Shown here piece after piece: positions 5,982 to 6,138 of a stretch of 12,317 nucleotides of DNA. A program made the translations under genes and the position numbers. Location: the IMG/VR virus record IMGVR_UViG_2690316115_000015, positions 1-12,317 of that record; one strand, given 5' to 3'. Positions within the stretch are counted from its first letter, which is position 1, and the number at the start of each line of letters is the position of its first letter. This stretch comes from a virus. Taxonomy: Duplodnaviria; Heunggongvirae; Uroviricota; Caudoviricetes. Below the pieces are notes generated by a model that was given only the letters and a program-made list of their open reading frames with translations, had not been told where the DNA came from and made no database searches.

Positions 5982-5999
5982 ATATCCTGAACTTAACGG

Positions 6000-6026
6000 A
6001 ACCCCGTCATCGTACGGGGTTTTTTG
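6000..6026 (+). terminator. Intrinsic terminator between portal and scaffold genes
   Basis: Stem AACCCCGT / ACGGGGTT around loop CATCGT, followed by TTTTTT (6021-6026). Begins 19 nt after the portal stop. Confidence 0.6.
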
Positions 6027-6138
6027 TCTCCGGAGATAAGCGTTCCGGGAGCGGTGCGCTTATTCGCGGGGGCAGCGATAAGCCTTATTTACTCAACCAT
6101 TCGGATCTGTCCGATAAACAGACCATGCGGAGTTATTT

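Follow-up and report, generated by a model that had tools for sequence, protein, structure and literature searches.

The gap between rpsO and pnp in Escherichia coli contains an intrinsic terminator, t1, followed by the pnp leader hairpin, which is cleaved by RNase III, and pnp is subject to autogenous control by PNPase. Among the phages, the lambda N-leader (comprising nutL boxB, an RNase III hairpin and N translation) and the put elements of HK022 belong to the early operons, where they follow promoters and precede terminators, and they are present in two copies. The late operons of lambdoid phages also carry intrinsic terminators and stem-loops that polymerase modified by Q can pass, e.g. 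in the pR'/qut/tR' region of 933W and 3' of the gene for the major head protein of P22, HK97 and lambda. For the scaffolding gene 8 of P22, post-transcriptional autoregulation has been described (Casjens and Adams 1985; Wyckoff and Casjens 1985; both as cited in PMC5529062).

We report that the gap between the portal gene and the presumed scaffold gene of a 933W-like phage contains a hairpin with the anatomy of a terminator, a long RNA hairpin formed by the plus strand and an invariant tail, and that this element is conserved among distant relatives and linked exclusively to one gene. With respect to layout the closest analogue is rpsO-pnp, which has the same succession of upstream gene, intrinsic terminator, leader hairpin of approximately two turns, Shine-Dalgarno (SD) sequence and regulated gene, and relatives of the phage also have an internal promoter-like element in the gap; however, there is no kinship in sequence or family, the phage element has an invariant single-stranded tail and sits in a late operon, and cleavage and autoregulation are for the phage only proposed here. 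The closest biological precedent is P22, which shares with this locus the gene order portal, scaffold and coat, a PF16510 portal and the idea that the output of scaffold is set post-transcriptionally. In P22, however, the portal-scaffold gap is 13 nt and has no such leader, our covariance model (see below) finds no match, and the proteins in scaffold position are not detectably related. As in other lambdoid late operons, a GC-rich hairpin with a U tract is located between late genes, on the transcribed strand and in a phage group that carries Q, but here very distant phages almost invariably couple it to one specific downstream leader RNA. Finally, the element resembles the lambda N-leader and put in being a folded phage leader RNA that has a (putative) recognition element and a long hairpin upstream of the SD; unlike these it is single-copy, late and situated downstream of its own terminator, and the model has no match in HK022.

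The stretch of DNA that was analysed (the window; 12,317 nt) holds the head and DNA-packaging module of a 933W-like lambdoid podophage (Sepvirinae), a prophage of the Shiga-toxin type. The features referred to in the text are:

1335-2150, plus strand: small terminase gene.
2131-3837, plus strand: large terminase gene.
3837-5981, plus strand: portal gene, P22-type, 714 aa (Pfam PF16510 P22_portal, E = 2.9e-131; phrog_156 portal).
6000-6027, plus strand: intrinsic-terminator-type hairpin, stem 6000-6007 with 6014-6021, loop CATCGT and T6 at 6020-6025 (from sequence and folding).
6024-6075, plus strand: long RNA hairpin with the loop GGAG (from folding and covariation).
6070-6085, plus strand: possible alternative small hairpin, GGGC-AGCGAUAA-GCCU (one compensatory pair).
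6073-6081, plus strand: invariant tail CAGCGAUA(A here, C in most relatives), directly 3' of the long hairpin (from the alignment).
6106-6122, plus strand: small hairpin UCUGU-CCGAUAA-ACAGA (enteric relatives only).
6129-6141, plus strand: SD sequence GGAG (6129-6132) and ATG (6139-6141) of the L0115-like gene (from sequence).
6139-7146, plus strand: L0115-like gene, 335 aa, phrog_479 (presumed scaffold by position).
7170-8384, plus strand: major head (coat) protein gene (PF13252, E = 1.4e-88; phrog_334).
8401-8423, plus strand: terminator-type hairpin after the coat gene (from the terminator scan; -13.9 kcal/mol).

Additional virion protein genes are located further 3' of the coat gene, also on the plus strand. 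Over 5700-6500 the sequence matches the E. coli ML35 chromosome at 100% identity, Shigella phage POCJ13 at 99.9%, and 933W and most Stx1/Stx2 phages at approximately 91%. The 335-aa protein is acidic and mostly helical and belongs to the 933W L0115 family, for which phrog_479 gives 'unknown function'. It has no Pfam family, no sequence or profile match in the PDB and no fold match using Foldseek, and its AF2 model consists of long helices and disorder (pTM 0.26); on the basis of position and composition it is presumed to be the scaffold.

Relatives were gathered via this downstream protein, which gave 20 loci in reference genomes (Citrobacter, Yersinia, Brenneria, Pectobacterium, Symbiopectobacterium, Aeromonas, Photobacterium and Oceanisphaera; 32-53% protein identity) and 80 IMG/VR loci. 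Another 23 IMG/VR loci were obtained using a DNA pattern search filtered with a covariance model. Among the 80 IMG/VR loci listed with an exact pattern, 57 had covariance scores below 40 bits and were rejected, 53 of these being without a covariance match at E <= 0.01, and they are apparently chance matches; one chance pattern match sits within a coding region of locus L115. In total, 55 distinct sequences were aligned to the covariance model. They range from Escherichia to Aeromonas, Photobacterium and Oceanisphaera, and the identity of the protein is as low as 32%.

The portal-to-scaffold gap is long in every relative (150-950 nt), and the relatives share the order terminator hairpin and T run, long hairpin, invariant tail, small hairpin (in enteric relatives only), SD sequence and start codon. 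Among enteric relatives a CAUGC(A/G)GGAG block around the SD is conserved. The covariance model gave one match per locus, always on the plus strand and directly 5' of the phrog_479 homologue (31 of 31 loci), and in all 23 of the further IMG/VR loci the element is followed by a phrog_479 homologue (E from 1e-20 to 1e-81). The complete 933W genome has a single match, while P22 and HK022 have none. We also compared the site with published data on EHEC: none of the known Hfq-bound sRNAs (EcOnc list, Tree 2014) is situated near the Sp5 portal/L0115 junction, as judged by coordinate transfer from AsxR and tR', and Hfq CRAC of a non-induced Sakai lysogen, which is uninformative with respect to late mRNA, lists no peak near the site.

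The portal stop codon (TGA, 5979-5981) is positioned 18 nt upstream of the terminator hairpin. This hairpin (AACCCCGT-CATCGT-ACGGGGTT, 6000-6021) has an 8-bp stem that includes five G-C pairs, a 6-nt loop and a T6 tract, and its predicted folding energy is -13.7 kcal/mol (z = -2.9). The preliminary description had placed a hairpin with T6 at 6000-6026, just after the portal stop, and this is borne out by the sequence with the hairpin and T6 at 6000-6025. The built-in terminator scan did not list it, probably because the stem is extended by G.T pairs into the T run; a custom scan using the same criteria recovered the hairpin. With a strict scan (perfect stem and T run), 46 of 54 distinct relatives proved to have a terminator in this position, its end lying 2-21 nt upstream of the long-hairpin element, whereas only 3.7% of random 68-nt windows drawn from these loci contain one. 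Most of the eight relatives that fail the strict scan have imperfect terminators with bulged stems, and one lineage (L115 and L142), alone among the relatives, is without an upstream terminator. The stem differs between lineages, and since the same spot is kept with at least 21 different stem sequences, the terminator is under selection and is conserved by function, not by sequence descent.

That a terminator in this position would be odd inside a late operon, as had been stated, is not upheld: in close relatives Q, pR' and a number of annotated terminators occupy this strand, and terminators inside the late operon are therefore expected. Specifically, in 933W and POCJ13 Q is situated upstream on the same strand, followed by stx and the lysis genes, and the 933W record annotates pR', qut and several terminators, with N/nut (nutL, nutR) annotated elsewhere in this genome. 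Late transcription in Q-dependent operons resists terminators, and terminators are expected there (PMC7547250). Public Term-seq data are available for strain Sakai (GSE143631; PMC7547250). The promoter scan predicted no sigma-70-like promoter in 5982-6138; distant relatives carry a promoter-like element of their own in the portal-scaffold gap. On the other side of the coat gene, the hairpin at 8401-8423 is proposed to be the 3' boundary of a scaffold-coat mRNA segment. A hairpin 3' of the coat gene is present in most enteric relatives and missing in several non-enteric ones, and the P22 record annotates an analogous stem-loop 3' of gene 5. Another terminator-type hairpin is located at 8844 in the window.

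The long hairpin is composed of a lower stem (6024-6032 with 6067-6075), an upper stem (6035-6043, GAUAAGCGU, with 6056-6064, GCGCUUAUU) and an apical stem (6045-6047 with 6052-6054). Folding of the leader gave -32.1 kcal/mol for 6024-6075 (z = -5.3), and none of 200 shuffles was equally stable. In an alignment of 30 sequences 94% of the cells are paired, compared with 29-54% when the partner strand is slid, and compensatory changes are present in 10 of 18 pairs. For the 55 distinct sequences and a 21-pair helix, the corresponding numbers are 90.9% paired cells (33-51% slid) and 14 of 21 pairs with compensatory changes, and the observed pairing score was reached by none of 500 shuffles. The possibility that the gap provides a structured 5' leader for the next gene had been raised before, and the covariation strongly supports such a structure. 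Moreover, G.U pairs outnumber A.C pairs 109 to 6 in the long hairpin of the relatives, which shows that the structure is one of plus-strand RNA and not of duplex DNA or of the opposite strand.

The long hairpin has a length of 45-50 nt in 52 variants, with 15-21 predicted bp (median 19), which agrees with the approximately 20 bp or more of near-continuous double-stranded RNA typical of leaders processed by RNase III. Comparing the window with 933W revealed just two differences in 5999-6197 (C6028T and A6036G), each of which changes a Watson-Crick pair into G.U such that pairing is kept, whereas the flanks of this region are 12-18% different; judged from this comparison, 5999-6197 appears to be under purifying selection. 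A CsrA-type GGA loop was considered and rejected, the apical loop GGAG not being conserved among the relatives. No matching family was found in Rfam 15, where none, e.g. isrJ, JUMPstart or the known ribozymes, reached its gathering threshold, and cmscan with permissive E-values gave nothing over 6026-6138. The best match, RsmY with 27.3 bits against a threshold of 57, lies over the portal 3' end and the terminator, and the other matches are likewise sub-threshold and driven by the terminator. As far as Rfam 15 and a limited literature search go, the leader belongs to a general kind that is known but forms an RNA family not described before; the terminator itself is ordinary.

Directly 3' of the long hairpin, C-A-G-C-G-A-T-A is invariant in the 30-sequence alignment. 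In the relatives the tail reads CAGCGATA(C/A), i.e. AGCGAUA(C/A) as RNA, and it is kept in the 55 sequences except in one lineage (L010, L101 and L103), which has a different tail. The conserved residues of the protein are unchanged in this lineage apart from a single L-to-M change among 39 conserved columns, and within these columns we found no protein-RNA co-variation. The distance between the tail and the start codon varies from 33 to 80 nt, being shorter in Photobacterium-type relatives and longer in the enteric ones, and for the enteric phages the tail is far from the AUG for a simple steric operator. The alignment of the relatives revealed no conserved pairing that hides the SD and no long-range pairing with the start region. 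Sigma-54-like, ops-like and boxA-like readings of the invariant segment were compared by eye and rejected, as key positions are unconserved or mismatched. A second AGCGATA is present upstream of the terminator in one Aeromonas-type subclade only.

Two smaller hairpins overlap or follow the tail. The possible alternative hairpin at 6070-6085 would present AGCGAUAC as a loop; it excludes the lower stem of the long hairpin, and vice versa. In a fixed register 81.6% of its cells are paired, and the Photobacterium lineage contributes a single compensatory pair, in which G-C is replaced by A-U; there are also register shifts, and the support is weaker than for the lower stem. The hairpin at 6106-6122 has the version UCUAU-CCGACAA-AUAGA in the enteric relatives, with one A-U to G-C compensatory change and the enteric consensus UCU(A/G)U-CCGAYAA-A(U/C)AGA; it is absent from the Aeromonas, Photobacterium and Oceanisphaera relatives. 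At the same place RNAalifold predicts an overlapping alternative, UCGGA-UCUG-UCCGA.

Our working interpretation, held with moderate confidence, is that 5997-6138 forms a plus-strand RNA module of two parts, a terminator and, coupled to it, a cis-regulatory leader that sets the output of scaffold and coat post-transcriptionally. We infer Q read-through, processing, stabilisation and the identity of a trans factor as follows. The terminator (6000-6025) would stop polymerase that is unmodified by Q, thereby insulating the capsid genes, and it would give portal-ending transcripts a stable 3' end, while Q-modified polymerase would pass it. The long hairpin, which belongs to the leader 6024-6138, would then form at the very 5' end of the scaffold-coat segment. 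A two-turn helix beside a U-rich single strand resembles substrates of RNase III and RNase E. Given such a helix beside a U-rich strand here, and the hairpin after the coat gene, we propose processing into a hairpin-bracketed scaffold-coat mRNA. This end would be the processing point, where either RNase III would cut the helix or RNase E the U tract, and cleavage would separate the scaffold-coat mRNA from the portal mRNA. The scaffold-coat mRNA would be long-lived between the protective hairpins 6024-6075 and 8401-8418, and processing would favour a scaffold and coat output well above that of portal. A trans factor may recognise the invariant tail and thereby adjust translation or decay; in analogy to P22 gp8, our favoured candidate would be the scaffold-like protein in its unassembled form. 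Several of the observations above weigh against this proposal: the SD is not hidden by any conserved pairing, the tail is 33-80 nt away from the AUG, the lineage with the different tail shows no protein-RNA co-variation that would support autoregulation, L115 and L142 are without the terminator, several non-enteric relatives are without a hairpin after the coat gene, and the downstream protein is only presumed to be the scaffold.

Taken one step further, and put forward as a tentative idea, the terminator-coupled hairpin together with the invariant AGCGAUAC tail is a candidate for a hitherto undescribed RNA operator through which the state of head assembly might feed back on the synthesis of scaffold and coat in 933W-like phages, including the Shiga-toxin phages. 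The signal for such feedback would be free scaffold-like protein or another conserved factor of the phage or the host.

A considerably less probable alternative is that the terminator hairpin and the long hairpin mark a segment boundary only, i.e. that both are determinants of processing and stability (a site for RNase III or RNase E together with stems that protect the 5' and 3' ends) without any dedicated regulator, with the tail being a nuclease or ribosome determinant. The conserved length of the approximately 21-bp helix, its position next to a U-rich single strand, its having a counterpart in the hairpin after the coat gene, and the fact that co-variation between protein and motif was not found are all consistent with this. 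However, 8-9 nt of the tail are invariant while the identity of the protein falls to 32%, which argues for sequence-specific recognition of a kind that generic stability hairpins do not need.

We find it doubtful that the element is instead a processive antitermination signal, similar to HK022 put or to nut, that lets polymerase ignore the terminators after the coat gene and beyond. Such a signal would be a structured RNA with an invariant segment upstream of terminator-type hairpins, as is the case here with respect to 8401 and 8844, and the promoter-like element between portal and scaffold in distant relatives would fit as well. The element is, however, always located downstream of the nearest terminator(s) and would be of no help in passing them. 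It is moreover present in one copy per genome, in a late operon and tied to one gene, whereas nut and put elements exist in two copies in early operons; 933W has N/nut and Q/qut annotated elsewhere, and the absence of a covariance match in HK022 points in the same direction.

Capsid assembly involves approximately 12 portal subunits and hundreds of scaffold and coat subunits. This bears on the earlier suggestion of attenuation, in which the terminator lets only part of the polymerases pass and thereby fixes the ratio of portal to scaffold. While a strong and conserved terminator exactly between the two genes is in keeping with this suggestion, the direction is wrong: termination would lower scaffold and coat relative to portal, which is the opposite of what the capsid needs. 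Late transcription is furthermore terminator-resistant in the Q-carrying relatives (PMC7547250), and we regard attenuation as improbable, slightly more so than antitermination.

The terminator-coupled leader also accounts for a cluster of five GATAAG-like motifs that the preliminary description had interpreted as possible DNA sites of a regulator. The motifs are indeed present: GATAAGCG at 6035-6042, CGCTTATT at 6057-6064, GCGATAAGCC at 6075-6084 (one base off the 6076-6085 given earlier), ATAAG-C-CTTAT at 6078-6088 and GATAAAC at 6113-6119, with two exact GATAAG 42 nt apart. Their number, on the other hand, is at chance level. ATAAG/CTTAT occurs four times in the 157-nt gap, and the same top 5-mer count is seen in 27% of dinucleotide-preserving shuffles and in 46% of the 157-nt windows in the 12.3 kb. 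Two of the five motifs, GATAAGCG and CGCTTATT, are complementary because they are the opposite strands of one RNA stem in the 6024-6075 hairpin. The third site, GCGATAAG (GATAAG at 6077), is part of the invariant tail 3' of the long hairpin and a local variant of the GCGATAC that most relatives have at this site, while GATAAAC constitutes the loop and the 3' strand of the small hairpin at 6106-6122 and is GACAAAT in most relatives (GACAA at this fourth site).

Among the relatives the variants at these sites are GGTAAG, GCTAAG, GGAGAG, GCGATAC and GACAA; the first site reads GGTAAG in the majority 933W clade, with the pairing kept as G.U, and the palindrome ATAAG-C-CTTAT is confined to the E. 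coli clade. Hence, GATAAG is not conserved among the relatives, whereas the pairing is. That GATAAG/CTTATC would be the DNA half-sites of a dimeric regulator is very improbable given the chance-level count and the unconserved sequence; in addition, the helix pairs continuously up to a loop of 3-7 nt, and the bias for G.U over A.C is unlike that of a site in duplex DNA. The motifs thus result from the strands of the stem, from the invariant tail and from a loop, with no regulator needed. Finally, that the gap encodes a small protein, either the 87-aa ORF 5978-6241 (with an ATGA overlap with the portal stop) or the 41-aa ORF of phage phi345, is hardly credible. In its favour, the window keeps both frames open, and PV189402 carries an annotation for one of them. 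However, 933W has lost the ATG of ORF 5978-6241, no open frame with a conserved start is shared by the relatives, and substitutions track base pairing rather than codons.

The leader, which is a candidate for a new Rfam family, corrects spurious small-ORF calls in the gap, e.g. in phage phi345. If it is regulatory, it would represent a compact and deeply conserved handle on the output of capsid proteins across the 933W-like head-module lineage, which spans most EHEC Stx1/Stx2 phages as well as Yersinia, Pectobacterium, Aeromonas and Photobacterium prophages. It provides a concrete RNA for testing how one late transcript yields approximately 12 portal subunits versus hundreds of scaffold and coat subunits, and whether scaffold autoregulation has a defined operator. 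Should the operator reading be true, the leader would constitute a defined RNA target for assembly-coupled autoregulation of scaffold, a phenomenon known from P22 since 1985.

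Between the window and phage 933W we found only 2 differences in the 199 nt from 5999 to 6197, and the sequence flanking this near-identity island is 12-18% different. Its 5' edge coincides exactly with the start of the terminator, while its 3' end lies 59 nt inside the coding sequence of the L0115-like gene (presumed scaffold), and the N-terminus of the encoded protein, M..(L/F)TG.ET.E.L, is among its best-conserved parts.

Among the related loci (numbered with the prefix L), two lineages carry a variant of the invariant tail, the short word directly 3' of the long hairpin:

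L115 12074-12142 and L142 5263-5331: element with a variant tail, terminator missing
L010, L101 and L103, approximately 2898-2963: Yersinia-type lineage, variant tail

In the L115/L142 lineage the tail reads CAGCGACAC and no recognisable terminator is present upstream of the element, which makes this lineage the sole exception found to the pairing of terminator and leader. The Yersinia-type loci have a 5-bp hairpin, GGGCC-GCAUCA-GGCUC, in place of the tail, but their long hairpin is unaltered, as are the protein's conserved residues. Moreover, an Aeromonas-type subclade (L140, L112, L138, L177, L116 and L020) carries another AGCGAUAGAC-like copy immediately 5' of the terminator, approximately 50 nt upstream of the element, such that the invariant word is present on both sides of terminator and hairpin.

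Two small ORFs overlap the leader:

5978-6241, plus strand: 87-aa ORF, overlapping the portal stop codon as ATGA
L003 1822-1947: 41-aa ORF over the leader, annotated in the record of phage vB_EcoP_phi345

The relatives keep neither ORF and both are therefore probably false gene calls, for which the structured leader is the probable cause. In the Rfam search, RsmY gave a sub-threshold match at 5904-6023 on the plus strand (27.3 bits vs the threshold of 57; E = 1e-4), spanning the GGA-rich portal 3' end and the terminator, and the list of Hfq-bound RNAs (CRAC) from a non-induced E. coli Sakai lysogen has no sRNA at the equivalent place.

Further downstream in the late operon we noted:

8401-8423, plus strand: terminator-type hairpin with a T run, 3' of the coat gene (≈-13.9 kcal/mol)
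8844-8868, plus strand: terminator-type hairpin with a T run, 3' of the gene for a 130-aa virion protein (≈-13.9 kcal/mol)
8882-9343 and 9267-9890, plus strand: two head-module ORFs in different frames with a 77-nt overlap

In most enteric relatives, too, a hairpin follows the coat gene, and in P22 a stem-loop is annotated at the corresponding position, 3' of gene 5. The two ORFs overlap as do L0118 and L0119 of 933W.

Relatives with longer portal-scaffold gaps (L006-L013 and L016-L020; e.g. L008 2754-2850) have a conserved promoter-like element between portal and module, which is absent from both the window and 933W. The enteric phages have the form TTGC(A/C)T-N17-TAAATT, those of Aeromonas type TTGCAW-N17-TAGRRT and those of Photobacterium TTGACT-N16-TAnnCT, and an additional terminator follows 25-50 nt 3' of the element. 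This arrangement looks like a source of a constitutively made short RNA, resembling pR'-tR' or an sRNA gene.
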